IMG/VR virus record: IMGVR_UViG_2554235236_000002
Source: a virus
Strand: one strand, 5' to 3'
DNA: 42,166 bases
The notes below the pieces were generated by a model, which saw only the letters and a list, made by a program, of their open reading frames with translations, did not search any database and was not told the origin of the DNA. Each line of letters starts with the position of its first letter. Position 1 is the first letter of the stretch. A program made the translations under genes and the position numbers. This document shows positions 1-35,474 of the stretch, piece after piece.

Positions 1-1
1 T

Positions 2-172
2 ATGAGATTTCAATTACAAAACGGTGTTGGTGAAGAAATGGCTCTATCTGATGCGGAAATAGATAAAATTATTCTCGGTATTGAAGATGATCAATCTTTT
101 TATGATCAATTAGACGATATCCTGAAGGAACACATTGAGGATTTCGGCAAGAATTATGGCATTGAACTGTAA
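2..172 (+). CDS. Acidic hypothetical phage protein, probably 5'-truncated by the window
   Basis: Manual translation: open frame MRFQLQNG...YGIEL, stop TAA at 170-172. Confidence 0.55.
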   Translation: MRFQLQNGVGEEMALSDAEIDKIILGIEDDQSFYDQLDDILKEHIEDFGKNYGIEL

Positions 173-195
173 TAAGAAAAAGATGGAGATGGAAG

Positions 196-369
196 ATGAG
201 TGGTGTTAGAACAAAACTTTCATACAAACAGCTACACACATTAAAACACGCTTTATTAGAGTATATGAAACGTAAAGATATAACAGATGATGACTTTAAA
301 AGCGAACAGGATTTGTTGATAAAAATTAACTGCCAAATTGAAGAAATGAAGGAACGTTACAATATTTAG
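196..369 (+). CDS. Hypothetical phage protein (57 aa)
   Basis: Manual translation MSGVRTKLSY...ERYNI; GGAGA upstream. Confidence 0.7.
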   Translation: MSGVRTKLSYKQLHTLKHALLEYMKRKDITDDDFKSEQDLLIKINCQIEEMKERYNI

Positions 370-461
370 TTTTAATGAACTGAAAGTTCGGGCGTAAATC
401 GGAAAGTGAAGGCACTGTTAGCTGTTAAATGATAAAGCGAAATAAGGAAAGGATGAAAAGA

Positions 462-653
462 ATGGATTTAGTTGTATTTAAAAGAGATGTTTTCTTTGAG
501 GATAAACACAGTAATCCAATTTTTAAAAAGGGTAAGGAGTATGAAATATTAAGCGAGGATAAAGAGTTCATATACGTCAATTCTAAGCCGAAAACAAACG
601 AATGTTCACAAGTTCCAAAAAAAGAAGAGGGATTTATTTTTGAATACAAGTAA
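462..653 (+). CDS. Hypothetical phage protein
   Basis: ORF 429..653; RBS GAAAGGA favours ATG at 462. Confidence 0.65.
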   Translation: MDLVVFKRDVFFEDKHSNPIFKKGKEYEILSEDKEFIYVNSKPKTNECSQVPKKEEGFIFEYK

Positions 654-851
654 TGCAGCCTCGCCATAACAACGAAACAGACAAGAAGAAAAGAACATTA
701 AAGTTAAATGTGATATGTGTAACCGTTTAGGGGATAAAGACAAAATGAAAATAGGAATGTCAGGGTTTATTAATTCGCATTTACACAAATCAGCGGCCGG
801 AGCCGGGAAGGAGAATGAGGGATATGGAAAAGGGTTATCGAGTTCGATAGA

Positions 852-879
852 TTAAGTTAAAATCGTCATTTTAAACAAA
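852..879. repeat. 28-bp 11-6-11 boundary site, copy 1
   Basis: TTAAGTTAAAA-TCGTCA-TTTTAAACAAA. Confidence 0.8.
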
Positions 880-920
880 TTAAAAGAAAATATGGCTTTA
901 TCGAGTGGGAGGAGGATTAT

Positions 921-1325
921 ATGGGTTTAGATGTGACACATGGCGCCTTCAGTGGAGCATACTCGGCGTTTAATAATCTTAGAAGGTTTTTATTAAGATC
1001 AATTGGAGGTAGTTGGCCACCTCATGATGATAAAAAATTAAAGGATGGCCATTGGTATTTTGGTGAGGGCTATTCCACAAAAACGCATAAGGGACTAACT
1101 GAGTTTTTCGGTCATTCAGATTGTGATGGTGAAATTAGTCCTGAAATGTGTAAAATTGTTGCGGATGAACTAGAAGCCATCTTGCCATATGTAGAAGAGT
1201 TAGCGAAAAAAGAAATGCCTCATGGTCATATATTACGTGATGGTGGATACATAGTGTGCACAAAACAGTTTATTGCTGGCTGCAGACTAGCACATGAATT
1301 AAATGAACCATTAGAGTTTAGATAA
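921..1325 (+). CDS. Hypothetical phage protein (134 aa)
   Basis: Strong RBS GGAGGAGG; ORF track. Confidence 0.85.
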   Translation: MGLDVTHGAFSGAYSAFNNLRRFLLRSIGGSWPPHDDKKLKDGHWYFGEGYSTKTHKGLTEFFGHSDCDGEISPEMCKIVADELEAILPYVEELAKKEMPHGHILRDGGYIVCTKQFIAGCRLAHELNEPLEFR

Positions 1326-1344
1326 AAGCATGTTTTTAACGAGA
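1317..1344. repeat. 28-bp boundary site, copy 2
   Basis: TTTAGATAAAA-GCATGT-TTTTAACGAGA; contains the upstream stop codon. Confidence 0.85.
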
Positions 1345-1357
1345 TGGGAGGTATTAT

Positions 1358-1873
1358 GTGGGAGATATCCAGTTTTTAAAAGAGTTGCAAGAAGAATTGA
1401 GAACGCAAGAAAACGACGGTCAAGCTGCATCACGATTTTGGACAGTCGGTGATTATGAATGGGTCGAAGCTCGGGAGGAGAACGCAGAGCGCTATTCTGT
1501 ATACCTGCCATATAATGCAGAATCATATGTTTTAGATGATTATCTGGAAGAAATAAAAAAAGATAGTGAGCTGTCTGAAGAATGCCTAACTGAGCTGAAA
1601 GAAATTGGGGAAGACTATGACGAAGCTATTGAGTGGATTCAAAAATACATAGATGAAGAAGCAGAGTTAATTCCAGAAAGAAAGGTTCACATTATACAAC
1701 CAAATACAATGTTTTTGACCAAAAAAGAAGCAAAGAGTCACATCAAATCGAATAAGCATCATTACACTTCAAAAGCTCATACTTATGCTATGACAGCTTG
1801 GAGAGCGCCTAAAGTGGAACGACTATTGAAGATATTAGAAACATTTGATTGGGATTCAATTAAGATCAAATAG
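1358..1873 (+). CDS. Hypothetical phage protein (171 aa)
   Basis: RBS GGGAGGT, GTG start; ORF track. Confidence 0.85.
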   Translation: MGDIQFLKELQEELRTQENDGQAASRFWTVGDYEWVEAREENAERYSVYLPYNAESYVLDDYLEEIKKDSELSEECLTELKEIGEDYDEAIEWIQKYIDEEAELIPERKVHIIQPNTMFLTKKEAKSHIKSNKHHYTSKAHTYAMTAWRAPKVERLLKILETFDWDSIKIK

Positions 1874-1887
1874 TTATTTTATTATGA
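1860..1887. repeat. 28-bp boundary site, copy 3
   Basis: TTAAGATCAAA-TAGTTA-TTTTATTATGA. Confidence 0.7.
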
Positions 1888-1899
1888 AGGAGGAATTGT

Positions 1900-2148
1900 G
1901 TGTTTATCATTCAAAACATCGAAACGGAATTCTATTTGAAACATAATGGGAGCGAGTCATTAGAACACCCCTATATCGAAGTGGCCTGTCCGGGAGATGC
2001 AGAAGCTTTCAGTTCATTGAAACACGCAAAATATGCAGTTACATGGTATTGCGATATGTTTAAAAAATGGAGAATTATCGATGTATACGAAGGTAAATCG
2101 TATGTGAAGAATAAAATTTTTGAATTTGTTTTAGAAGAAGCTATGTAA
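1900..2148 (+). CDS. Hypothetical phage protein (82 aa)
   Basis: RBS AAGGAGG. Confidence 0.8.
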   Translation: MFIIQNIETEFYLKHNGSESLEHPYIEVACPGDAEAFSSLKHAKYAVTWYCDMFKKWRIIDVYEGKSYVKNKIFEFVLEEAM

Positions 2149-2157
2149 CGGAGAGTA

Positions 2158-2970
2158 TTAATCTCTCCAGGAATTAAATGAGGGGATACGAAGTTTGCCA
2201 TTTTTAGTCTTAAAACGGTGCTTCACATTACATAATAAAGGCTTAATGAATACATAATCGTCATTTTCATATTCTATTTGTTTGATAGAGTGGAAGTATT
2301 TGCGTTCATCGAATGGCATAAATTCCATGAACCCGGCAGATAAACCGTCAGGGTAACTGAGAAGAAACTTGATATCTTCCTTAGTGTATCCAGTAATGAG
2401 CACGTCAGTGTACTGATAATTTATAACCTTGATCCAGTTTTCCGATCTCTTGTTGATCTCGTAAGGGGAGTTTGCTTTCTTAAGCACGATTCCTTCAAGG
2501 TTCTTTTCTTTAGTCATTTCAAAATAGGCTTTTCCTTTGCCTTGTACTCCTTCAATCACAAAGATATTTGGATGGTTAAGATTTAGTGATCTAAGGAATT
2601 CCTTGCGTTTAAAAAGTGGATTTGAAGCTATTGATATTTCATTTAATCTTATGACATCGAACACGCAATAAACAATTTGATGAGAAGATTTGCTTGATTG
2701 AAAACGTTCCATAACAGATTCAAAATCGGGCAACCCATCAGAATTGGTAACGATAATTTCCCCATCTAAGACTGTCCCTTCGGGAATATCAATATCATGC
2801 AGCTCAGGGAATTTATTGGTGACTTCATTATTATGGCGCGTGTAAAGCTTAATCTTGCCATCTTGATTAGAAAGAATGATCCGTATCCCATCAAATTTAA
2901 GCTCAGTAATATAGTTTTCATCATCAAATGGCTCTTTAGCTGAATCAAGCAGCATTGGAGCTATAAACAA
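2158..2970 (-). CDS. ligB: ATP-dependent DNA ligase
   Basis: Motifs ELKFDGIR, LDGEII, FDVI, EGIVLK; RBS GGAGGTGG before TTG at 2970. Confidence 0.92.
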   Translation of the reverse strand: MFIAPMLLDSAKEPFDDENYITELKFDGIRIILSNQDGKIKLYTRHNNEVTNKFPELHDIDIPEGTVLDGEIIVTNSDGLPDFESVMERFQSSKSSHQIVYCVFDVIRLNEISIASNPLFKRKEFLRSLNLNHPNIFVIEGVQGKGKAYFEMTKEKNLEGIVLKKANSPYEINKRSENWIKVINYQYTDVLITGYTKEDIKFLLSYPDGLSAGFMEFMPFDERKYFHSIKQIEYENDDYVFIKPLLCNVKHRFKTKNGKLRIPSFNSWRD

Positions 2971-3063
2971 AAAAACCACCTCCATTTAAACATCTTATCT
3001 AAGGAGAGATGTTATTTAAAGCAAAATGCTGATGGTACTTAATGGATTAAAAGGAGGGATGTA

Positions 3064-3288
3064 ATGCACCAAACAACAGTGCAGATTAAAGATGTGAAAG
3101 TATTGATTAGGGGGATCTGGACAAAGAAGAAATTCACTGAAATAGAACGCGGCCAGACATTTATGATTGAGGAAGATGGCTGCTTTAAAAAGTACATAGC
3201 AAGAACAGAGCCTTATTGGGATAAGGAATTTGAAGCTTATGTTGTTGATGTGATGGATAAAAACAAGTTGAGGAGAGGGATTAGATGA
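3064..3288 (+). CDS. Hypothetical phage protein (74 aa)
   Basis: RBS AAAGGAGG. Confidence 0.8.
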
Positions 3289-3428
3289 GCAAGCTTTCCA
3301 TATTAAAATTCAGTAGAGATATCGGGAAACCATTTAGTCAATTGGCGTTTGTAATTAATGAGTTGTCTTTTGATTATAAATCGAAAAGAGAGTTGCTGCA
3401 ACAAATTGAAAAAGTCCGGTTTAGTTAA
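3285..3428 (+). CDS. Small hypothetical protein (47 aa)
   Basis: Manual translation MSKLSILKF...KVRFS; ATGA overlap with upstream gene; stop lies in boundary site. Confidence 0.55.
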
Positions 3429-3447
3429 AACAGAAATTTTATATAAA
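3420..3447. repeat. 28-bp boundary site, copy 4
   Basis: TTTAGTTAAAA-CAGAAA-TTTTATATAAA. Confidence 0.85.
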
Positions 3448-3460
3448 TTAAAAGGAGATA

Positions 3461-4714
3461 ATGATGAATTATCAATTTGAAAAAAATAAGCTGTATGCTT
3501 ATCTAGGGGAAGACTTAGTGAAATCTTTAAAGAAATATGAAGTTATTATTGCTGGTGGAGCAATTACAAGCCTATTCAATAATAAAGAGATTAATGATAT
3601 TGACCTTTACTTTAGAAGTGACAAACTGGCCTGTGATTTTTTGAGTGAATATTGGCATGATGGTATTTATGTGGCATCTCTCACAAAGAAAGCAGCATTA
3701 TTTATAAAAGGTGAATTAAAAGTGCAAATGATCCATTTTAGATTTTTTACCGATCCAAAAGAGATCTTTAAAACGTTTGACTATACAGTTTGCATGGGTG
3801 TATTTGATTTTAAAACTGAGGAGTTCACCCTACATAACGATTTTTTAAAACACAATTCCCAGCGCGTGCTGAGATTTAATAGTGGCACAGCTTTTCCGAT
3901 TGTTTCGCTTATTAGAGTACAAAAATACATCGACAAAGGGTACACCATTTCTAAATCAGAATTAATCCGTGTAATTCTTGCTTGTATGAATTTGAATATT
4001 GATACATACGAAGAGCTTAAGGAACACATAGGAGGGATGTATGGAGTAAATTATGACAAGCTATTCGAAGAAGGAAATGATTCACCTTTCGATTTGCAAA
4101 AAGTTATTGATCAAATCGCAAATATCCACTTAAATGATGAGTATTTTAAAGAGCCTGTTTCATTAGAATTCAAAGATCTTGATGATATTTTAGATACTAT
4201 CAATAAGAGTCCAGTTAAAACAATCACAATAAATGATGATAAATATAGAATTGGACATGACGGATACTTGAATAATTCATGCGCAGCTCCAGTACAAGAG
4301 ATTAAGTTAGACACTGGAGACTTTTTTAAAAACGAACGGTTCTACAAATTTGTAAGAAAAAGAGGAGATGGAAGACTGACAAGCTTTTGGGACGAAGACT
4401 TTGAGTATGTGGTAGGAGAAATGGCTACGGCAAAAGGGGGCTTAACGTTATGGTCAGGAGAGGGCAAGTTATACTTCAATGAAAAGTCAGCAATTGATGA
4501 ATCGTCATATTATAACCGTGATGACAAAGTACTAATTGAAGTGTCAATTAAAGAAGAAGACTTCATTGAAGCTGAGTATGGGACTGTTGAAGCTAAGTCA
4601 TGTTTCGTATTAAGAGAGGTTCCACAGAAGGAATGGGAAACATATTTAGAGAATATCAATGACTCAACAATAAACGGCGAAGAAGATCAAGAAGCTGATG
4701 AAATTTTTATATAA
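3461..4714 (+). CDS. Nucleotidyltransferase-fold protein with extra C-terminal domain
   Basis: N-terminal IIAGGAI...DIDLYF matches the NTase hG[GS]...DhD signature. Confidence 0.65.
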   Translation: MMNYQFEKNKLYAYLGEDLVKSLKKYEVIIAGGAITSLFNNKEINDIDLYFRSDKLACDFLSEYWHDGIYVASLTKKAALFIKGELKVQMIHFRFFTDPKEIFKTFDYTVCMGVFDFKTEEFTLHNDFLKHNSQRVLRFNSGTAFPIVSLIRVQKYIDKGYTISKSELIRVILACMNLNIDTYEELKEHIGGMYGVNYDKLFEEGNDSPFDLQKVIDQIANIHLNDEYFKEPVSLEFKDLDDILDTINKSPVKTITINDDKYRIGHDGYLNNSCAAPVQEIKLDTGDFFKNERFYKFVRKRGDGRLTSFWDEDFEYVVGEMATAKGGLTLWSGEGKLYFNEKSAIDESSYYNRDDKVLIEVSIKEEDFIEAEYGTVEAKSCFVLREVPQKEWETYLENINDSTINGEEDQEADEIFI

Positions 4715-4733
4715 AAACGATATTTTATCCAGG
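4706..4733. repeat. 28-bp boundary site, copy 5
   Basis: TTTATATAAAA-ACGATA-TTTTATCCAGG; contains the upstream stop codon. Confidence 0.85.
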
Positions 4734-4755
4734 GAATAAGGAAAGGGGAAGAAAA

Positions 4756-5403
4756 ATGAGCAAGAGCAGCATTTATACAATTGATTCGAAGTTTAATGGA
4801 TTTGTAAAAAATGAATATAAAAACTCATGGTGGTTTAGCCCTGTGGTATGGGATGTTTTACTTGATAAATATATGCATGATGATATTCAAACACCATTTG
4901 GTTTTAAAAAAAGCATTATTGGATGGGATGGAGAGGAACTCAACAAGAAATTAAATCAACTCATGAACAGTTGTGATAATTTTTCAGATCGCATTTGTTG
5001 GGAAATCACTAATCAGCAAATATTTTTCACTAAAGATAAGGAGCAAATAGCAAAAGCTCTTAAAGATTTTGCTCAAATGAATAAAGAATTTCATAAAGAC
5101 TCTGAGGGCATTTCAGTTTTGACGTATGAACATATACTTGAGCGTTTTAATGAAATTGCAGACGATATATTAGCAATTAATGAAAAACATTATCCATATT
5201 TTGTGTTTAAAAACACAAGTGTTGATGACAATGTGGAATTTTGGTTTGAAAAATATGTTAAAGAAGCTGATGAGTATACAAGCAGAACTCTAAAGGAACT
5301 CAATGAGTATGTCACTGAATTTGTTAAGATTAAGGACAGCAAGATACAAGGGTTTATTAGCAATTTAGATTATTTTAATAAGAAACATGAAAAATTCGCA
5401 TAA
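4756..5403 (+). CDS. Hypothetical phage protein (215 aa)
   Basis: RBS AAAGGGG; ORF track. Confidence 0.85.
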   Translation: MSKSSIYTIDSKFNGFVKNEYKNSWWFSPVVWDVLLDKYMHDDIQTPFGFKKSIIGWDGEELNKKLNQLMNSCDNFSDRICWEITNQQIFFTKDKEQIAKALKDFAQMNKEFHKDSEGISVLTYEHILERFNEIADDILAINEKHYPYFVFKNTSVDDNVEFWFEKYVKEADEYTSRTLKELNEYVTEFVKIKDSKIQGFISNLDYFNKKHEKFA

Positions 5404-5422
5404 AAGTAATTTTTTATACAAA
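5395..5422. repeat. 28-bp boundary site, copy 6
   Basis: TTCGCATAAAA-GTAATT-TTTTATACAAA; contains the upstream stop codon. Confidence 0.85.
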
Positions 5423-5521
5423 TTAATAGTGAACAAATAAGGCGGGTTCAGAGGATGCTGCAGGCCGGATACAGGGAAAACAGATTGAACAATGGTTACA
5501 AGATGACGGGAGGTAAGGGGA

Positions 5522-5869
5522 ATGAGAGAGATTAAATTTCAGGCATGGGATTTAGATGCTGAACAAATGTATAACTGGGAAAGCATTAGACAACACTTTC
5601 ATGAACATTTAGATCAACCAAGGGTTAAGGTAAGACAATATGCTGGGTTAAATGATAAGCATGGAAAAGAATACTATGACGGAGACATTTTAAGAAATGA
5701 AAGAGGCGCTATTCTTGAAGTCGTGTTTGATGGTGGATGTTTTTATGTTGAGGGTTACGATCCTATTAGTAACCGTAATGTAAATGAGCTGCTATCTCTA
5801 TTTGCCACTTGGTCTGAGATTATTGGAGATAAATATCGAAATCCTGGTCTATTGGAGGCGGCGGAATGA
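5522..5869 (+). CDS. YopX family protein
   Basis: MREIKFxAWD, QYxGLxDKxGKExYxGDI, EIIGxxYxNPxLL motifs. Confidence 0.88.
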   Translation: MREIKFQAWDLDAEQMYNWESIRQHFHEHLDQPRVKVRQYAGLNDKHGKEYYDGDILRNERGAILEVVFDGGCFYVEGYDPISNRNVNELLSLFATWSEIIGDKYRNPGLLEAAE

Positions 5870-6129
5870 GCATCGATATCGTTGAATTTATAACATTTAA
5901 CCATAAAGGAGAACAAAAGCAAGAGCGCTTTCTGAAAACTGATCACGATAAATTTTTCGAGTTAATTGATGATTACACTAAAGATAGGGAGTTGATCGAG
6001 AATAAATCAATTTTTCAGGTTGACTTCTATGGATTTAAGACAGGTGACGAGCTTTTATATTTTGGTTTCTTCCGTGGAGATAATTTTTATTTAAGAGAGG
6101 ATTTTGCAGAATGTATATCATTGAGATAG
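5866..6129 (+). CDS. Hypothetical phage protein (87 aa)
   Basis: ATGA overlap; RBS GGAGG. Confidence 0.8.
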   Translation: MSIDIVEFITFNHKGEQKQERFLKTDHDKFFELIDDYTKDRELIENKSIFQVDFYGFKTGDELLYFGFFRGDNFYLREDFAECISLR

Positions 6130-6154
6130 AAAACCTTTAGGAGGCGGCGGAATA

Positions 6155-6277
6155 ATGGAAGATATTATTTGCCCTAGCTGCGGCGAAAGCGAATTAGAAC
6201 TATGGCATATGGATATTTACGAGTGCCCCGAGTGCGGGATCATGATTCCAAGTGAAGTATTGGAGGGGACGGGATGA
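6155..6277 (+). CDS. Small zinc-ribbon protein (40 aa)
   Basis: Manual translation MEDIICPSCG...YECPECG; RBS AGGAGG. Confidence 0.7.
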   Translation: MEDIICPSCGESELELWHMDIYECPECGIMIPSEVLEGTG

Positions 6278-6522
6278 TGCACCGCCTACTCTATCCGTTT
6301 AAGTGGACGTTTGCTGCGCTGGATTGGGTGTTTTATTACATTGGTGTTGCTGCGGCTTCCGTTTCGGACTTGTTCGGTGAGGCAGCCGACTACTTCCGTA
6401 TTTGTATCGAAATCGCAGAACAGCGGAAAAGAGGCGTGAGAGTCATTTATATCGAGAAGAAGAGGAGGCGGGATGATGGGGCAGATGACACAAGAGGAAA
6501 TCAATGTCGCTCTTTTCGATGA
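6274..6522 (+). CDS. Hypothetical phage protein
   Basis: RBS GGAGGGG; ORF track. Confidence 0.6.
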   Translation: MMHRLLYPFKWTFAALDWVFYYIGVAAASVSDLFGEAADYFRICIEIAEQRKRGVRVIYIEKKRRRDDGADDTRGNQCRSFR

Positions 6523-6688
6523 AGGTCAACGGTTGCGGCAAGAAATCAGGCGGATAAAAAAGGAGAAAGAACGGTACAGAAACGCCCTTGAGCAGATCGC
6601 GAAAATGGAAAAAGCGAGGACTGCGCCTGAATTAGTGATTTGTAAGTATGCGAGATACGCAAGGGAAGCATTGGAAGCGGCGGAATGA
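6473..6688 (+). CDS. Coiled-coil hypothetical protein
   Basis: RBS GAGGAGG; ends LEAAE. Confidence 0.7.
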   Translation: MMGQMTQEEINVALFDEGQRLRQEIRRIKKEKERYRNALEQIAKMEKARTAPELVICKYARYAREALEAAE

Positions 6689-6725
6689 GTTGCAGAGCGG
6701 GCAATCGAGGAATGATTACTTAACT

Positions 6726-6753
6726 TCTGAATAAAAACAATCTTTTATCTGAA
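6726..6753. repeat. 28-bp boundary site, copy 7
   Basis: TCTGAATAAAA-ACAATC-TTTTATCTGAA. Confidence 0.8.
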
Positions 6754-6766
6754 AGCAGGTGGCTTT

Positions 6767-7021
6767 TTGTTTAGTTTACTTAAAAATACTTGTGAGCAAT
6801 GCGAATTCTATTCAGAATATAAGACTGCAAATATGCTACATAAAGATAAGACAGTAACAAGAGGGGAAGTGCTCATGAGATATTGCAAAAAGATGAAAGA
6901 TGAACTCCGAGATATGGAGAAATGCGAGCTTTTTCAATTGAGAGGGGGAAAAATAACTTTTACTGAAGCAGTCGATCATTATTTTAAAACAAAAAGAGAA
7001 AATTTGAGGACAAAATACTAA
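6767..7021 (+). CDS. Cys-containing hypothetical protein
   Basis: CxxC...C...C; RBS AGGTGG. Confidence 0.7.
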   Translation: MFSLLKNTCEQCEFYSEYKTANMLHKDKTVTRGEVLMRYCKKMKDELRDMEKCELFQLRGGKITFTEAVDHYFKTKRENLRTKY

Positions 7022-7036
7022 TTAAAATGACAGGGA

Positions 7037-7300
7037 GTGTTTAATGTGTCAGTTAAGCAACTTTGCGGAGGACAATGCACAGAAGAAACAATTGATTTGG
7101 TTAGGAGGCAATTACTGCAGCAGCAAAGCGCCTTACTCACTCAAAAGGCAAAAATTGAGACTAAGATTAGACGTCTGACAGATTTACTGCAATTAGAAAA
7201 TGACAAGCTTGAAAAAGTTAAATGTGAGCTAGGAAAGATTCAGTGTGAGCTTGAGGAACTGGGTTGCCTGGAGAAAGCATTGCATGAAGAGAATTTTTAA
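7037..7300 (+). CDS. Coiled-coil hypothetical protein
   Basis: ORF track; heptad pattern. Confidence 0.65.
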   Translation: MFNVSVKQLCGGQCTEETIDLVRRQLLQQQSALLTQKAKIETKIRRLTDLLQLENDKLEKVKCELGKIQCELEELGCLEKALHEENF

Positions 7301-7381
7301 TTTCCATATTTTTTATTAGATTAGTAAAAATGTACAGAGGATGTAGTATAATGGTCTTGTTATAAGTTAAGGAGGAAAGTC

Positions 7382-8032
7382 ATGAGGAGACCGTTAATTA
7401 AGTATTTATCTGTTTTTGGGATAATCGTAGTAGTAGGAGGGGCCATAGTCATCTATAATGCCTTAAATAACAATGACAAAGAATCAAATGATAATGCTTC
7501 TTCTGAGGACACATCTGAAGAAAATTCTAATGATGTACATAGTATTTCTTCAAGTGAATCAGATGAAAATGGGATGACGCCTGATGAATTTCAACAGCGA
7601 TTTAACAAAGAGGCAAAGAAGCTATTAGGCGAAAACACTAAATCAATAAACCTTGAATATAGTGATGGAGAAAGTTTAAATAGTTTTTCTTATGAGTTTA
7701 ATGATAATTTGATTTTAGTAGGTGGATTTGAAAAGGGCACAAATAAAATTGCAGAATTAATATTAACGACAAAGGATGAGTTAGAAGGCGATAGCCTTAA
7801 AAGTTATCTGCAGGTTGCTGGGGTTATAATTAAAGTGTTTAATCCGTATATGACAACGACTGAAATAACAAATATGATTTACAGTAAATTGGACTTGAAC
7901 AATGTAATAAATAATCATGGGGTAAAATCACATAAAGTTGAATCAGAAGTTTATGATAATTTAAGGTATTCTTTTAATTATTCTGTTGAAAAATTAGGAT
8001 TATTGTTTACAATTTCAATTTCAGAAGATTGA
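7382..8032 (+). CDS. Membrane-anchored exported protein
   Basis: N-terminal TM helix, acidic Ser/Asn linker; RBS AAGGAGG; TATAAT at 7347-7352. Confidence 0.8.
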   Translation: MRRPLIKYLSVFGIIVVVGGAIVIYNALNNNDKESNDNASSEDTSEENSNDVHSISSSESDENGMTPDEFQQRFNKEAKKLLGENTKSINLEYSDGESLNSFSYEFNDNLILVGGFEKGTNKIAELILTTKDELEGDSLKSYLQVAGVIIKVFNPYMTTTEITNMIYSKLDLNNVINNHGVKSHKVESEVYDNLRYSFNYSVEKLGLLFTISISED

Positions 8033-8040
8033 ATGTACAG

Positions 8041-8069
8041 AATATAGCAGGCATTCAGCCTGCTATATT
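8041..8069. terminator. Bidirectional intrinsic terminator
   Basis: AATATAGCAGGC-ATTCA-GCCTGCTATATT perfect 12-bp stem between convergent genes. Confidence 0.85.
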
Positions 8070-8071
8070 AG

Positions 8072-8419
8072 TTACTTTAATACCTTTTTAATCATCTTAT
8101 CCATTATGCCATCAGCTTGATAACCTTTTAGGATATCTTCAACTTTGTCCATTGGAACACTGTCTGTTGGGAGATCTTGTATTTCTGCTAATTTAGATCT
8201 AACATCTTCTTTCGTCGGAGCTTTGCTTTGAATATGATGGTCAATGAGATATTTCTCAAGCTTCCCCGATTCTTCAGAAGTGAGTCCATACTTCAAAATT
8301 ACAAAATCCCTAGTTGTGAAATCAGGAGCAAGATGCTCATACAGTGAAACAATTGCATTTTTCATGTGCATCAAAGTTGCGGTAAGCTCTTCTCTTTCTT
8401 TATCGTTCATTGTATTCAC
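8072..8419 (-). CDS. Small helical cytoplasmic protein, candidate immunity protein
   Basis: Directly downstream of the secreted protein gene; role inferred from position. Confidence 0.7.
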   Translation of the reverse strand: MNTMNDKEREELTATLMHMKNAIVSLYEHLAPDFTTRDFVILKYGLTSEESGKLEKYLIDHHIQSKAPTKEDVRSKLAEIQDLPTDSVPMDKVEDILKGYQADGIMDKMIKKVLK

Positions 8420-8435
8420 CTTCCAACATCGTTAA

Positions 8436-9014
8436 TTAGAAAAACCATTCCATAACATGCCTAATCCAAAAAGCTATACTTCTTGCTGTGGTATCTTTTA
8501 TACCAGTACCTTTAAGTGCATTAGCTGCTGCGCCTTCAATATTATCCCATGCTAATGATTCGTATTTTAAAAGTTTCTTTAATGCTGGTTCAACATATTT
8601 GTTAAAGCGTTTCTCTAAAGTGTTTCTGTGTCTTTTTCCAGCAACACTTTGGAATATTCTAAATAGCTTATCCTTGTTTTTAAGAACCGTTTTAATTGTT
8701 GCTTTTACAGCTTTTGTTGTGCCAGCTTGTGTTTTCATGACAGGCTCTTGTTGCTTTGCAAGCTGCTGGGTTTTAAACATTAAAGTGCTAAAATTCGAAA
8801 ATAGAGCATCAAGTTCCTGATCTTCAGTTAGAGCACCATTTTCAAATAAAACACTATCATTATGTGTCACATATGTAATTTTATTATTTCCAGACGGCTC
8901 ATGGATTTGAAGACTTTCACTTTCCTTAGCTTTGGCCATTGGCGTTAGTGAAGATGCAATCAAAGTAAAAGCAACACTTGAAAGTAAAACTTTTGTAGGT
9001 ATGTTGATTTTCAT
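8436..9014 (-). CDS. Secreted protein with cationic amphipathic C-terminus (bacteriocin/toxin-like)
   Basis: Sec signal peptide ending AKA; Lys/Arg-rich helical C-terminal half; RBS AAAGGAG. Confidence 0.7.
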   Translation of the reverse strand: MKINIPTKVLLSSVAFTLIASSLTPMAKAKESESLQIHEPSGNNKITYVTHNDSVLFENGALTEDQELDALFSNFSTLMFKTQQLAKQQEPVMKTQAGTTKAVKATIKTVLKNKDKLFRIFQSVAGKRHRNTLEKRFNKYVEPALKKLLKYESLAWDNIEGAAANALKGTGIKDTTARSIAFWIRHVMEWFF

Positions 9015-9388
9015 TATAACAAACTCCTTTACAATTAAAATAAGAAGAACACCCTAAAATAAAGATTCACTGCCTTAGATATTTATACTCACCTTCCTTT
9101 TTTGGTATATTTAGGGTATGTAAATTGTATCAATTAACGACAATAATATACAATAGTAAATTGTTAATTTAATGGAAAATGATTTTAAATTCCTTCAAAT
9201 GAACAGGTTAAAAGTCCTTAATATCGGTTGTGATAAATCAATTAACGGTATATTTGAACGATTCAGGAGAGTTTGACTGTCTATTAAAGCAATAGGAGGT
9301 AAGAGAGATGATTAATGTCATAGGAGGGTGGCTTATAGGCGTAAAAGTTGGAGGTCAAAATGATTTTTGAATAATGTTGAAAAAACAA

Positions 9389-9417
9389 TAGACAAACACA
9401 AATTAAAAGTATATAAT
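9389..9417 (+). promoter_or_regulatory. Conserved sigmaA-type phage promoter (SPBRE-like), copy 1
   Basis: TAGACA-AACACAAATTAAAAGTA(17)-TATAAT. Confidence 0.9.
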
Positions 9418-9448
9418 GGAAACATACTGATGAGAAAGAGGTGATTAT

Positions 9449-9781
9449 ATGAAAATGCTTAAGGTGTCAGAAGACGCTCTAAATTATTACAGGGAGTGCG
9501 TCAAGGGGAACAAAAACATAAGTGAAGATCAGGCAAGAGCAAAGCTCACTCGGAATGTTAACTTAGTACAAGCTGAGGCTCCAGAGAGGATATTGCGTAG
9601 CGGGCTCTTATCTAAGGTTTACATGTATCATGATCTTCATATTACTGTCAGAAATGGCAAGGTGATTAAAATCGTAAATTTTAAGAGACCGAGATTTTCA
9701 AAGAAAAGATACATAGAGTTATCAAAAGCTTTAGGAATTAAAGACATCAAGTATTACAGGAAGCATTGTGCAACCAGGTAA
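9449..9781 (+). CDS. yorE: Basic phage protein at the head of the replication operon
   Basis: Synteny; RBS AGAGGTGA. Confidence 0.7.
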   Translation: MKMLKVSEDALNYYRECVKGNKNISEDQARAKLTRNVNLVQAEAPERILRSGLLSKVYMYHDLHITVRNGKVIKIVNFKRPRFSKKRYIELSKALGIKDIKYYRKHCATR

Positions 9782-9863
9782 CATACATATGAGATCTAGA
9801 ATAACATTGCGTATATTGATTCGATTATACATCAATTAAAAGAACAAAAGGGAGTGTTGTAAA

Positions 9864-10775
9864 GTGTCAGAAAATCAAACAGTATTGCGTGAAGCAGAAA
9901 ACAAAGTAGTTTTAGAGGGGTTGCTTCTAGAAGTTCGTCACAACGAATGGAAAAGTGGAGAAGGGTTAAATATTGAACTAGATATCGAAACAGCTCCAAA
10001 CGAAGTGCATACTGTCACTGGAATGTCAAAGTATAAAAAAGAAGACGGCTCAGATAATGGGATTGCTAAGGGTTATAAAACAATAATTAATGACTATAAG
10101 TCTGTAGCTACTCATGGTAAAGAAGAAGCTGACAAAGTTAGAATAACACAAGGGAAAATTGGACTAAATGAATTTTATGTCCAAGACAATTTAAAGTCAT
10201 ACCCGCAATTGTCGACTAACTTTGTTAACCGGTTAAAATCAGATGAAGAATACAATCCGAGAGCAAAGTTTGAAGTTGAATTATTTGTAAAAGGGGTTAA
10301 AGAAGAAAAAGTGAAAGGGGAGGAAACGGGAAGAGTTCTATTGGAAGGATACATTCCTTTATATGGAGGAAAAATTATCCCCTTTACATTTGCGGTAACA
10401 AAAGAGGGTTCTGATTACGTAGAAAAGAATTACGAAAAGGGGAACACAGTTAAAGTATTCGGGGATATCATTAATTTTAAAGAAGTGAAAGTGACCGTTC
10501 AAGAATCAGCATTTGGAAAAGACAAAGAAAACATTACATATAACACAAAGCGTGAATTCTTAATTACAGGTGGCTTTGAACCATATGACGAAGACGATAA
10601 AGCAGCTTTTGACGAAGCAGCAGTTAAAGCAGCATTGACTGAAAGAGAACTTAAACTAGAGGAAATGAAGAATGACACTAAGAAAAGCAATAAAAATGAG
10701 AAGAAAACTGGATTCGGAGGGAAAGCAGTCACAGGCTCTTCTCAATCGATCTCTAAAGATGATTTGCCATTTTAA
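9864..10775 (+). CDS. yorF: SSB-like OB-fold protein
   Basis: C-terminal DDLPF tail; synteny. Confidence 0.8.
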
Positions 10776-20672: not shown

Positions 20673-21389
20673 GTGATGGAAATTTTCAAAAAACTGATAG
20701 ACTCAAACAAATTAAAAGTATATAATAAACGAAAAGAGTTGCAGATCTATTCTGTAATCTTTCTATTGGGGGTGGGATCAACATTAGGCTACAAGATGAT
20801 AGAGGAACATATCCAGCAGCAAAAGAAGGTTTCAATAAAAGAGCCATTTTATAAAAAACCAGACTTCATTCGTGAAGTGAAGTTAAAAAGGCAGCTGCTG
20901 CCTCATTTAGAGACTCGCCAAGAGATTATTGAAAAGGCACAAGATAAGTATTTACATATTAAAGTAGAAGAAGTTAAAAAAAATAAACCAAAAAGCAAAT
21001 TAAAAGAAAATACAAAGAGTAAAGTTTCTAAACCCAAGCAAAAGACTCAAAAGAGGCCTCACGAACAAAATCAAGTCATTAAAATGGAGGCCACGGCTTA
21101 TGTTCCATTTTGCGATACTGGCTGTATAGGGACAACTAAAACAGGCTATGACGTGTCAAATACAATTTACTATAAAGGGAAAAGAGTGATTGCAGTTGAT
21201 CCATCTGTAATTCCTCTGCACTCTTTAGTGAAGGTATCTTATAATAACGATTCGTTTGAGGCTTATGCTATAGATACAGGAGGTGATATTAAAGGAAATC
21301 GAATCGATCTTCTTGTTCAATCAGAATCAATCGCTAGAGATTTTGGTCGAAGAAATGTTGATGTGAGTATCATTACAAAAGGGAGCTGA
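20673..21389 (+). CDS. yorM: 3D-domain cell-wall protein with N-terminal TM segment
   Basis: ATAY, IAVDPSVIPL, DTGGDIKGNRID. Confidence 0.88.
   Translation: MMEIFKKLIDSNKLKVYNKRKELQIYSVIFLLGVGSTLGYKMIEEHIQQQKKVSIKEPFYKKPDFIREVKLKRQLLPHLETRQEIIEKAQDKYLHIKVEEVKKNKPKSKLKENTKSKVSKPKQKTQKRPHEQNQVIKMEATAYVPFCDTGCIGTTKTGYDVSNTIYYKGKRVIAVDPSVIPLHSLVKVSYNNDSFEAYAIDTGGDIKGNRIDLLVQSESIARDFGRRNVDVSIITKGS
20698..20726 (+). promoter_or_regulatory. Conserved phage promoter, copy 2 (inside yorM 5' end)
   Basis: TAGACT-CAAACAAATTAAAAGTA(17)-TATAAT. Confidence 0.8.
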
Positions 21390-23396: not shown

Positions 23397-23403
23397 TTTT
23401 TTA

Positions 23404-23432
23404 TAGACAAACACAAATTAAAAGTATATAAT
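23404..23432 (+). promoter_or_regulatory. Conserved phage promoter, copy 3
   Basis: TAGACA-AACACAAATTAAAAGTA-TATAAT, identical to copy 1. Confidence 0.9.
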
Positions 23433-23455
23433 ATTTTCATAGTTAAGAGGTATTT

Positions 23456-28284: not shown

Positions 28285-29231
28285 TAATTTGGCCCCTTTC
28301 GTCAGCAATGGCGATCGAAAACCTCTTTAATTCATGGGAACTCCCCAAGATACGGGTTTGGGTCAAATTCAAACCAAAATAAAGGGGGACGATCATGAGC
28401 GAAGCAAGACGGCCACACAACAAATTAGATATCGATGAGGAATTTATTCGCAAAAATTATTACATAATGAGTGCAAGAGAAATTGGTGAGGTTTTAGGTG
28501 TATCGCGGGAAGCAATAAATCATCGAGTAATTAAAATGGGATTACGAAAGACACAAATACCTTTCAAGAAAAGAGAGGGAGAAATATTAGTCCCAATACA
28601 AGAGCTTCCCAACTACGGGGTCACAAATCACAGCCGAGTAGTCAATCTAAAACGCATGACTTTAGTTAAAACGAAAATTGATTGTGAGGGTTATGTTAAA
28701 GTGACTCTTAATAAAAACGGTAAAGCTGTTGACAGACGTGTTCACCGTTTAGTAGCACTTCATTTCATACCTAACCCGAATAATTTACCGCAAGTTAATC
28801 ATATTGACGGAGATAAGTCAAATCCAAGTATTAATAATCTTGAATGGGTGACAGCAAAAGGAAATGCTCAACACGCCTTAAAACATGGGTTGATTCGTGT
28901 TGGTGAAAAAAGCCCAAATGCTACAATTACTGAAAAACAGGCACTATCAATTTTAAAAGATTTTCAAAACGGTATGACTATTTCTGAGGTAAGAAAAGCT
29001 CACCCATATGCGAGTAAATCAATTGTCGATAAAATTTGTCAGAGGCAAAGGTGGAAACACCTTGATAAAACGTCTTGAACGTGCAACGACTAGCCGGAAG
29101 GCGTAGGCTACAAGCGATTGGTAGCCGAAACAGGAGGCATCCCAATGGGATGAAGATATAGTCTAATCTTCGTGGTAACATGAAGCTGCCGAAAGGCGGG
29201 GCGTGTGTAGCGAACACGTCCGAATAGTCTG
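28285..29231 (+). ncRNA. Group I self-splicing intron (947 nt) in nrdE
   Basis: Exon ends in U, intron ends in G; joining restores ADQMG|QRQGSGAAYL; P1 GGGU/GCCC; core elements AATTCATGGGAA, GATCATGAGCGAAG, GCAACGACTA, AAGATATAGTCT. Confidence 0.93.
28395..29078 (+). CDS. Intron-encoded HNH homing endonuclease
   Basis: VHRLVA..F, VNHIDGDKSNP...NLEWVT...N..H; HTH-like termini. Confidence 0.92.
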   Translation: MSEARRPHNKLDIDEEFIRKNYYIMSAREIGEVLGVSREAINHRVIKMGLRKTQIPFKKREGEILVPIQELPNYGVTNHSRVVNLKRMTLVKTKIDCEGYVKVTLNKNGKAVDRRVHRLVALHFIPNPNNLPQVNHIDGDKSNPSINNLEWVTAKGNAQHALKHGLIRVGEKSPNATITEKQALSILKDFQNGMTISEVRKAHPYASKSIVDKICQRQRWKHLDKTS

Positions 29232-30611
29232 CAAAGACAAGGATCAGGAGCTGCTTATCTTAATGTTTTTCATCCAGACATTAATGACTTCCTTGATACC
29301 AAAAAAATCTCAGCAGATGAGGATGTTAGGGCAAAAACCTTATCAATTGGTGTAGTTATACCAAATAAATTTATTGAACTTGCTAGGGAAGACAAGGACT
29401 TCTACATGTTTTATCCCTATTCAGTCTATAAGGAATACGGACAACATTTAGACGAAATGGATATTACAAAAATGTATGACAAACTGGTGGAAAACCCAAA
29501 AGTCAGAAAGAAAAAAGCGAACGCCCGTAAACTATTAGAAAAGCTTGCATTGTTACGATCAGAGTCAGGGTATCCTTACCTGATGTTTGCCGACAATGTA
29601 AATCGATTCCACGCGAACAGTCATGTTTCGAAGGTTAAATTTTCTAACCTTTGTAGTGAGGTTCTACAATCCTCCAAAGTATCAACGTATACAGACTATG
29701 GCGAAGAGGACGAAATTGGCTTGGACATTTCATGTAATCTAGGCTCGATTAATATCTTCAACGTAATGAAGAACGATTCAATTAAGAATACAGTTAAATT
29801 AGCTATTGATGCATTGACTCATGTATCGAATAAAACCAATATTACAAATGCTCCAGCAGTTGCTAAGGCAAATAAGCTTATGAGGTCAGTTGGGCTTGGA
29901 GCAATGAATCTGCACGGTTTCTTAGCTCAAAATGGTATTGCCTACGAAAGTGAGGAAGCGAGGGACTTCGCGAACACTTTCTTTATGATGATGAACTTTT
30001 ATTCTCTTGAGCGTTCAATGGAAATCGCCAAAGAAGCCGGGGAAACATATTACCAGTTTGAAGGCTCTACATACAAATCAGGTGAATATTTCAAGAAATA
30101 CGAAGAACAAAGCTTTAGTCCAAAGTTTGAAAAGGTAAAAAAACTGTTTGGGCAACAGCATATTCCAACAATTGAAGATTGGAAGCAGCTTAAACAAGCT
30201 GTGATGAAGTATGGCTTATATCATTCTTATAGACAAGCAATAGCTCCTACAGGAAGCATCTCATATGTTCAATCCTCAACAGCTGGTGTCATGCCGATCA
30301 TGGAGCGGATTGAAGAAAGAACATACGGCAACTCCAAGACGTACTATCCGATGCCTGGACTTGCGCCGAGCAACTGGTTCTACTATAAAGAAGCGTATGA
30401 TATGGACATGTTCAGAGTTGTCGACATGATCTCGACGATTCAGCAGCACGTTGACCAAGGCATAAGCTTTACATTGTTCCTGAAAGATACAATGACGACA
30501 CGCGATCTGAACCGAATTGACTTGTACGCTCATCACAAAGGGATCAAGACGTTGTACTATGCGCGGACAAAAGACACGGGGCAGGAAGGCTGCCTATCAT
30601 GTGTGGTTTAA
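29232..30611 (+). CDS. nrdE: Ribonucleotide reductase alpha subunit, exon 2
   Basis: FSNLCSE, SCNLGS, APTGSIS, KTLYY, CLSC; spliced length 701 aa. Confidence 0.93.
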   Translation, partial: QRQGSGAAYLNVFHPDINDFLDTKKISADEDVRAKTLSIGVVIPNKFIELAREDKDFYMFYPYSVYKEYGQHLDEMDITKMYDKLVENPKVRKKKANARKLLEKLALLRSESGYPYLMFADNVNRFHANSHVSKVKFSNLCSEVLQSSKVSTYTDYGEEDEIGLDISCNLGSINIFNVMKNDSIKNTVKLAIDALTHVSNKTNITNAPAVAKANKLMRSVGLGAMNLHGFLAQNGIAYESEEARDFANTFFMMMNFYSLERSMEIAKEAGETYYQFEGSTYKSGEYFKKYEEQSFSPKFEKVKKLFGQQHIPTIEDWKQLKQAVMKYGLYHSYRQAIAPTGSISYVQSSTAGVMPIMERIEERTYGNSKTYYPMPGLAPSNWFYYKEAYDMDMFRVVDMISTIQQHVDQGISFTLFLKDTMTTRDLNRIDLYAHHKGIKTLYYARTKDTGQEGCLSCVV

Positions 30612-31262: not shown

Positions 31263-32243
31263 TTGACGCAATATACAGCGGCCAACTGGTCGCAGCACGA
31301 AGACGGATTCACACAAATGTTTTATGAACAGAACGTTAAGCAGTTTTGGCTCCCTGAAGAGATCGCACTTAACGGAGATTTGCTTACATGGAAATACTTA
31401 GGGAAAGATGAACAAGATACATATATGAAAGTGTTGGCCGGATTAACCTTACTAGACACAGAACAAGGGAATACTGGTATGCCTACAATCGCTGAGCATG
31501 TGAAAGGGCATCAGCGCAAAGCCGTCCTGAATTTCATGGCGATGATGGAGAACGCAGTCCATGCGAAATCCTATTCGAACATCTTCATGACGCTTGCGCC
31601 AACGGAGAAGATAACGGAACTGTTCGAATGGGTGAAGACGAATCGCTACTTGCAGCGGAAAGCCGCAATCATTGGCGGACTGTATAACGCGATTGAGGCA
31701 GGCGATGACATTTCGTTATACAAGGCGATGGTTGCATCTGTTTATCTCGAAAGCTTCCTATTCTACAGCGGCTTTTATTATCCGTTATATTTCTACGGTC
31801 AAGGAAAGCTGATGCAGTGCGGAGAGATTATCAACCTCATAATTCGGGACGAAGCGATTCACGGTGTTTATGTCGGTTTGCTTGCCCAGGAAATTTACAA
31901 CAAGAAAGACGAAGGCACGCAGCATCGACTTGAAATGTTTGCGTTAAGCCTCATCGAAGAACTCTATCGCAACGAGATCGCCTACACTGAAGAACTGTAT
32001 GATCAAGTCGGCCTCACACATGACGTTAAAAAATTCATCCGGTATAACGGAAACAAAGCGTTGTCCAATCTCGGATTCGATCCGTACTTTGAAGAAGAAG
32101 AGATCAATCCGATCGTGTTGAACGGGTTGAATACGAAAACGAAGTCACACGATTTCTTCTCAATGAAAGGGAACGGCTACAAAAAAGCATCAGTTGAACC
32201 GTTAAAGGATTCAGATTTTTATTTCGAGGAGGTATCACTATGA
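31263..32243 (+). CDS. nrdF: Ribonucleotide reductase beta subunit (uninterrupted)
   Basis: [33 protein letters not shown]. Confidence 0.95.
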
Positions 32244-35429: not shown

Positions 35430-35445
35430 AGAATGTAAAAAACAA

Positions 35446-35474
35446 TAGACAAACACAAATTAAAAGTATATAAT
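35446..35474 (+). promoter_or_regulatory. Conserved phage promoter, copy 4
   Basis: TAGACA-AACACAAATTAAAAGTA-TATAAT, identical to copy 1. Confidence 0.9.

Follow-up and report, generated by a model that had tools for sequence, protein, structure and literature searches.

Barcoded 28-bp dyad sites separating slots for accessory genes in early DNA of an SPbeta-like Bacillus phage

This work concerns a stretch of viral DNA of 42,166 nucleotides (IMG/VR record IMGVR_UViG_2554235236_000002), referred to as the window, and in particular its region from 852 to 6753, in which seven copies of a 28-bp inverted repeat separate small groups of accessory genes. The reading towards which the analysis leans is that this region is an ordered series of exchangeable accessory-gene slots meeting at 28-bp joints, with cargo traded by exchange within short identical sites; such an arrangement resembles an integron and is not one. 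The repeats are barcoded, in that each carries its own 6-bp centre. They are ordered and enriched at mosaic boundaries, and have the form of putative protein-binding dyads. Deletions have left them behind as hybrids, and they have been used as joints in laboratory recombinants. We infer that the exchange itself takes place within the short identical site.

Alignment of the window with SPbeta runs from yoqV to yotM, with the replication genes yorF–yorL at about 72% nucleotide identity, followed by the nrd genes, dUTPase and yotB–yotM. Its YorL polymerase is about 84% identical at the protein level to the YorL of all Bacillus SPbeta-like phages. This alignment and the YorL identity identify the window as early-region, plus-strand DNA from a divergent SPbeta-like prophage. 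Site and junction statistics were taken from a comparison set of seven phages and counts of same-centre pairs from six B. subtilis phages. L011, L012 and L017–L025 denote relatives, among them the IMG/VR relatives L017, L022 and L025; L001–L003 represent SPbeta and L009 represents phi3T. A site matrix was built from 104 sites of the seven phages, and real sites score between 14 and 27 on it.

The dyad motif and its barcoded centres

The sites follow the consensus TYTnRA-TAAAA-N6-TTTTA-WnnARA, with two 11-bp arms around a free 6-bp centre. Alignment of 86 unique sites from five phages indicated that conservation exceeds the core, the TYTnRA of the left arm being mirrored by the WnnARA of the right. 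Exact TAAAA-N6-TTTTA cores occur 10 times in the window against 0.54 expected from dinucleotide shuffles; six start inside the array (858, 1323, 3426, 4712, 5401 and 6732) and four lie elsewhere. The position matrix finds 19 sites in the window, and its recovery of all seven 28-bp sites of the array bears out the original prediction that seven sites divide 852–6753 into six units. Across the seven genomes the N6 spacing is strict, with 139 cores at N6 and at most 10 at each other spacing from 0 to 12, a control that ruled out base composition as the source of the motif. The reversed core arrangement is not enriched in the same genomes.

A typical site lies between the stop codon of one gene and the ribosome-binding site (RBS) of the next. 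Among 154 sites in the seven phages, 54 provide the TAA stop of an open reading frame (ORF) of at least 40 codons, compared with 5% for random TAA; 11 further sites have a stop at position −4, and the median distance from site to next start codon is 23 nt. A second dispersed leader motif, AGAATAAAAATAAAAT, is found between some sites and the next RBS in SPbeta (L001–L003; e.g., SPbeta 113677, 120655 and 132761) and phi3T (L009), including the leader of gad1 and gad2, two genes described below. It has many copies per genome and none in the window. Outside Bacillus, the SPbeta-like Staphylococcus phage L147 (NC_029119, 77727–127726) has a weak enrichment of cores at N6 (seven, against at most three at other spacings), with some copies directly upstream of an RBS, and the range of the motif may therefore extend past Bacillus at low density. 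Among the matches listed by a pattern scan of viral contigs, true and chance hits are mixed.

The centres behave as barcodes within and between genomes. No pair of centres within any of the seven genomes lies within one mismatch, where chance would give 4.6 such pairs for 26 sites (P of none = 0.017 per genome). Among the six B. subtilis phages, exact same-centre pairs number 175 against 7.7 by chance. Classified by homologous flanks, 54 of these pairs are homologous on both sides, 47 on the right only, 26 on the left only and 48 on neither, so that unrelated DNA adjoins at least one side in 69%. Shared centres, of which there are up to 23, are fully collinear in the 21 genome pairs, with no inversions of order. 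One centre in phi3T, before yorE, was considered as an inversion; it is only two substitutions from its own reverse complement and gives no evidence of inversion.

Homology breakpoints were compared at same-strand junctions with spacers of 20–120 nt. Junctions with a site are breakpoints in 61 of 82 cases and those without a site in 48 of 123, an odds ratio of 4.5 whose direction is consistent in all seven genomes; as the statistics are pooled over related genomes, their P values are inflated. A negative control for site-independent mobile insertions is available in the nrdE/nrdF region, where large, clean indels of 728, 1161 and 806 bp (28344–29072, 29654–29658 and 31842–31844) distinguish the window from SPbeta and phi3T. 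They lie where SPbeta has its intron, intein and endonuclease, and their edges carry no barcoded site.

Several other identities for the sites have been tried and rejected. At the variable arm positions, complementarity within a site is equal to or below that of shuffled partners, with no pairing covariation. No Rfam matches were obtained in 1–10000, and the leader at 5417–5525 folds no better than shuffles. A reading as RNA or as a single-strand hairpin was ruled out for lack of covariation and of an Rfam match. Because the arms are conserved as sequence without covariation, their symmetry marks the site as one predicted to be bound, in double-stranded form, by a protein dimer and not as a hairpin. 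A consensus scan found no sigma-A-like promoter or terminator at the sites and no strong promoter at the head of the array, which excludes the sites as promoters or terminators of that type; the sole strong sigma-A-like promoter in 1–9900 is at 9389–9417 and the sole strong terminator at 8041–8069. Host dif was likewise rejected, as the site matrix gives B. subtilis dif scores of −9.7 and −14.2.

SPBRE, the operator of the SPbeta master repressor MrpR, is another candidate that was set aside. MrpR is a recombinase-fold protein whose ChAP-seq peaks contain SPBRE only (PMC10516654). The SPBRE motif derived from ten MrpR-bound SPbeta upstream regions is a different sequence from the sites. Copies of SPBRE occur in the window apart from the barcoded sites, at about 9377–9417, 20679–20729, 23403–23451 (minus strand) and 35433–35474, the best associated sigma-A-type promoter being TAGACA-17-TATAAT at 9389–9417. 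They are likely MrpR-controlled early promoters of the phage. Downstream (3′) of one SPBRE promoter, a barcoded site (20830–20857) lies within a long ORF, the YorM homologue at 20673–21389. The SPbeta equivalent at 111029 lies within yorM likewise, and the true yorM start may be 3′ of the internal site.

Borders, units and cargo of the array

All seven array sites match a homology boundary in at least one relative. The original prediction had proposed that homology starts and stops at the sites, that neighbours differ between phages and that clean empty-site alleles exist; the comparison agreed on each point, with unrelated genes lying between identical centres. At site 1 (852–879, centre TCGTCA, matrix score 23.1), homology to L017, L022 and L025 starts exactly at core base 858, and the upstream gene and context differ. 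Gene A (unit 1; 921–1325, plus strand, 134 aa, phrog_11026) follows. In SPbetaL2 both gene A and gene B are enclosed by sites, and the empty allele for gene A is found in SPbetaL6, which lacks this gene and has in its place one hybrid site composed of the centre of the left site and the flank of the right. At site 2 (1317–1344, centre GCATGT, score 25.3), homology to L024 stops at 1344 and homology to SPbetaL6 begins at 1363. Gene B (unit 2; 1358–1873, plus strand, 171 aa, GTG start, phrog_3205) comes next; in L017–L023 the unit that lies between sites 2 and 3 is longer and diverged. Site 3 (1860–1887, centre TAGTTA, score 16.0) has a degenerate left core, TCAAA; its ortholog in L017 and L018 has a perfect core and an identical centre, with homology beginning within the left arm. 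In several relatives homology ends or starts at 1862–1883.

The other clean deletion concerns units 4 and 5, namely a homologue of the anti-Gabija gene gad2 (3461–4714) and a 215-aa gene (4756–5403), both on the plus strand. At site 4 (3420–3447, centre CAGAAA, score 22.6), homology to L011 and L012 begins at 3421. Through 3454, L018 and the window are 98% identical; gad2 and the 215-aa gene are absent from L018, and L025 carries the same empty allele, with units 4 and 5 missing. Both relatives have a single hybrid site, whose left arm and centre are those of site 4 and whose right flank is that of site 6. Sites 5 (4706–4733, centre ACGATA, score 21.8) and 6 (5395–5422, centre GTAATT, score 21.6) have centres identical to those flanking yoqY in SPbeta, where GTAATT follows yoqY. 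The 215-aa gene is unrelated to SPbeta YoqY despite these identical flanking centres. Among SPbeta, SPbetaL6, SPbetaL4 and the window, the ACGATA site is the sole shared sequence and stands in four left and three right contexts.

The five genes of unit 6 (5522–6688, plus strand) are small and coupled and begin with a YopX-family member (Pfam YopX, 3.7e-15). In L011 this block is swapped for about 550 bp of other DNA. A 72-bp homology island with the same relative ends at 6748 within site 7 (6726–6753, centre ACAATC, score 24.6). Past the array, an 84-aa gene (6767–7021, plus strand) forms a further single-gene unit whose right edge is a left-arm half-site near 7014–7024; L011 lacks it and has its next gene directly after site 7. 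Homologues of gene A and of the 215-aa gene have been found in unrelated viral contigs, those of the latter at 43–47% identity, and carry no sites. Because these distant homologues lack them, the sites belong to the slot of an SPbeta-type backbone and not to the genes.

The unit structure that had been described from the sequence was also confirmed on recheck of the ORFs: units 1, 2, 4 and 5 each contain exactly one ORF with its RBS. The TAA stops of 921–1325, 3461–4714 and 4756–5403 are the first three bases of the next core, in the left arm of the following site, and the TAG of 1358–1873 falls in the centre of the site at 1860, as had been noted. Unit 3 (1900–3428) has genes on both strands: an 82-aa ORF (plus), an ATP-dependent DNA ligase resembling YoqV (2158–2985, minus; Pfam DNA_ligase_A_M, 1.3e-30, aligning with SPbeta yoqV), a YoqX homologue (3064–3288, plus; aligning with SPbeta yoqX) and a 47-aa ORF (3285–3428, plus) whose place is taken in L011 and L025 by a longer ORF. 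The unit also gives a match to phrog_19340. The statement that all units point the same way therefore holds for the four single-ORF units and fails in unit 3, with its antisense ligase gene. That the units lack promoters and terminators was upheld, with the consensus scan as its sole basis. The array had further been pictured as one transcript read from an upstream phage promoter. This is contradicted, because the run is broken after 2148 by a hairpin and by the ligase gene on the opposite strand. The hairpin, at 2149–2172, lies between convergent genes, after the 82-aa ORF and facing the ligase. Another at 8041–8069 lies after 7382–8032 and faces a minus-strand pair at 8072–9014. The two hairpins divide the region into separate transcription units.

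The cargo of unit 4 is a 417-aa, nucleotidyltransferase-like protein that is 66% identical over 399 residues to the annotated Gad2 of SPbetaL6 and weakly matches phrog_1614 nucleotidyltransferase; it is classed by this similarity as a putative Gad2 (anti-Gabija) homologue. The slot downstream of yoqX has been described as a dedicated anti-Gabija locus, which holds gad1 or gad2 depending on the phage (bioRxiv 10.1101/2023.05.01.538930). The slot of site 4 precedes Gad2 in SPbetaL6 and Gad1 in SPbetaL4, there with the centre CAGAGA, and barcode and leader are conserved up to the start codon before both genes. A protein atlas search with the 215-aa protein returned unnamed viral clusters only.

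Laboratory recombinants and the mechanism of exchange

Dragos et al. have listed, in their Supplementary Table 1, 17 unique SPbeta/phi3Ts junctions from evolved hybrids and extrachromosomal DNA, among which junction 7 has 30 bp of homology and N1 was called non-homologous by the authors (bioRxiv 10.1101/2020.05.06.055103). Coordinates were converted by taking the SPbeta record as 2,286,447 minus the chromosome position, calibrated on two independently measured boundaries of the hybrid Hyb2. Junction 7 then falls at SPbeta 69,415 and phi3Ts 62,446, on a same-centre site pair with 21 exact shared bases and unrelated flanks. N1 maps to SPbeta 116,414, where 18 identical bases begin at a further same-centre pair. 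These are the only two of the 17 junctions with at most 30 bp of homology, and both fall on same-centre sites. Of the isolated exact matches of at least 16 nt between the early regions of SPbeta and phi3Ts, seven of 44 are orthologous sites, so short-homology exchange followed by a viability filter could also yield the laboratory result. The Hyb2 crossover near a GATCAA centre was discarded as uninformative, as 1.4 kb there is identical in both parents.

The preferred reading, exchange of slots within short identical sites, would operate as follows. When two phages of the group, or a phage and a resident prophage, share a cell, their DNA would be exchanged within a site of matching barcode. 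After one exchange, the left neighbour from the first phage would adjoin the right neighbour from the second, and two exchanges at successive barcodes would swap the cassette between them. Where two different sites within a genome have arm and leader sequence in common, exchange between them would delete the intervening cassettes and leave a hybrid site. The cargo moved in this way would be anti-defence and other accessory genes, here gad2. The candidate enzymes are most likely the phage annealing functions (the Sak4-like YorG and exonucleases) acting on 16–28 bp of identity, possibly assisted by a putative site-binding protein. Hybrid-site deletions and half-site insertions favour such short-homology recombination, because both clean deletions joined sites of different centre through shared right-arm and leader sequence and because some insertions have only a half-site at an edge.

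A number of observations weigh against this reading. The sites are not the sole joints, as 39% of comparable site-less junctions are also breakpoints, and some homology boundaries fall at a start codon or within the end of a gene. The coincidence of sites and boundaries is partly forced, because only breaks between genes give viable recombinants and most of the space there is occupied by the site. In the laboratory set, 15 of the 17 junctions have long homology of 400 bp to 19.7 kb (bioRxiv 10.1101/2020.05.06.055103), and the end point given by the authors for N1 in phi3Ts lies 14 nt before the shared 18-mer. Of the isolated exact matches of at least 16 nt between the early regions of SPbeta and phi3Ts, seven of 44 are orthologous sites, so short-homology exchange followed by a viability filter could also yield the laboratory result.

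An alternative that seems possible, if rather unlikely, is dedicated site-specific recombination, in which the sites are 11-6-11 core sites of a tyrosine recombinase and matching centres are needed as slot addresses. The enzyme would be the phage YopP or YomM or a host enzyme, and exchange would proceed as in engineered recombinase-mediated cassette exchange. The architecture suits it: as in Xer- and Cre-type core sites, spacing is strict and conserved arms enclose a 6-bp centre whose sequence is free. It would also fit the centres, over-dispersed within genomes and conserved and collinear between them, and the two of 17 laboratory junctions that used about 20 bp of identity even though long homology covers more than half of both genomes. 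The 11-6-11 layout, these centres and the laboratory junctions are reasons to retain a dedicated recombinase among the candidates. On the other side stand the two clean deletions, both between sites of different centre with the crossover in shared right arm and leader, the half-site at one edge of some insertions, and the lack of a recombinase gene beside the array.

The protein YopP itself can be argued either way. The SPbeta yopP product (L002, 28691–29767) matches the phage integrase family (1.8e-10), and this XerC-like protein is conserved in SPbeta-like phages and expressed in lysogens. Against solved structures it gives marginal matches only, to Cre, its first catalytic Arg aligning with Cre R173. 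Its box II reads H-S-F-K by eye, with Lys for the second catalytic Arg, and its neighbour MrpR is a proven inactive recombinase-fold repressor. With this Lys, YopP may, like MrpR, bind DNA without acting as a recombinase. The specific version in which a recombinase-fold protein (YopP, YomM or another) joins only matching centres, so that slots are swapped between co-resident phages in an address-coded cassette exchange, must be regarded as doubtful.

It is improbable that the sites are passive punctuation, that is, regulatory or architectural protein-binding sites such as roadblock operators like the stoperators of mycobacteriophages, at which boundaries fall merely since viable recombinants break between genes. 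Strict spacing without pairing covariation is what a protein-binding site would give, most of each short intergenic gap is taken up by the site, and many boundaries lie elsewhere. This explanation has difficulty with the islands in which a site of 16–28 bp is the sole shared sequence (48 pairs, against at most eight by chance), with the higher rate of breakage at site-bearing than at site-less junctions of equal spacer length, with deletions that leave hybrid sites and with the two laboratory junctions on sites. A true integron, i.e., an attC cassette array served by an IntI integrase, would account for co-oriented single-gene units that each end in a repeated site. It is very improbable indeed, as there is no intI, attI or Pc beside the array, the sites are 28 bp long and conserved in sequence without structural covariation, and they do not travel with the genes.

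Significance and relation to known systems

Anti-defence genes of phages are known to occupy fixed loci, and a 28-bp barcoded joint offers a testable answer to how unrelated genes come to share one place. SPbeta and B. subtilis are the most tractable Gram-positive phage–host pair. The barcodes also provide a rule for recognizing new accessory and anti-defence genes, namely to take whatever two barcodes enclose where the cargo between them varies among relatives; in the window this rule yields gene A, gene B, the 215-aa gene and the 84-aa gene as candidates. The sites offer a ready-made route to engineered cassette swaps in SPbeta-like phages. If a dedicated recombinase were involved, they would represent a new class of gene-exchange system, and if address-coded exchange were true, the arrangement would be a phage analogue both of integrons and of cassette exchange engineered with heterospecific lox/FRT sites. 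Literature searches, with the 1999 SPbeta genome paper outside their scope, found no paper describing the sites or the function of YopP.

The likeness to integrons that had been proposed at the outset stands for variable neighbours, homology boundaries and empty alleles, and does not extend to an integrase platform, an attC fold or mobility of the sites. The shared features are tandem, mostly co-oriented and apparently promoterless units with a terminal site and adaptive cargo. The attC site of integrons is a long folded single strand whose structure is conserved and whose sequence is free, whereas the sites here are short double-strand dyads. In integrons the site is part of the cassette; here it marks a backbone slot, and some units hold several genes. 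No ORF in 1–9000 matches an integrase, the only large ORFs being the ligase and Gad2. Membership among integrons was rejected for want of intI, attI, Pc and an attC fold and because the site is kept while flanking genes change.

Other dispersed elements offer partial parallels, the closest being the PeSL motifs of T4-type phages and the pdif-flanked dif modules of Acinetobacter plasmids. PeSL motifs of T4-type phages have been reported as repeated intergenic motifs that bound insertions, deletions and replacements, exchange being ascribed to recombination between motif copies (Arbiol et al., 2010, PMC2839356; Comeau et al., 2014, PMC4122927). They are likewise short, repeated and intergenic, in plastic accessory-gene regions of a large phage. 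A PeSL combines an early promoter with a stem-loop terminator, whereas the sites here have neither by consensus scan, and their arms are free of stem covariation. PeSLs belong to T4-type phages, and the present dyads, with unique centres in fixed order, to a temperate Bacillus siphovirus. Mindlin et al. have described 28-bp pdif sites of 11-6-11 layout that flank accessory-gene modules on Acinetobacter plasmids (Mindlin et al., 2019, PMC6449649). The length and layout are those of the present sites, and in both cases modules are bounded in the variable parts of a mobile replicon. The arms of pdif resemble host dif and are asymmetric, with XerC and XerD sides, whereas both arms here have the same AT-rich sequence. 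The replicon is a plasmid in the one case, and in the other a phage with slot-specific, collinear centres. Within SPbeta, SPBRE is likewise a dispersed intergenic dyad, bound by a protein of tyrosine-recombinase fold; it differs in sequence and lies at about ten promoters, separate from the barcoded sites. The dedicated anti-Gabija locus is the same locus as here, downstream of yoqX, where the window holds a gad2 homologue. The anti-Gabija report, in the part consulted, describes this locus and not its borders, and the present comparison places those borders at barcoded sites in phages with gad1, with gad2 and with neither gene.

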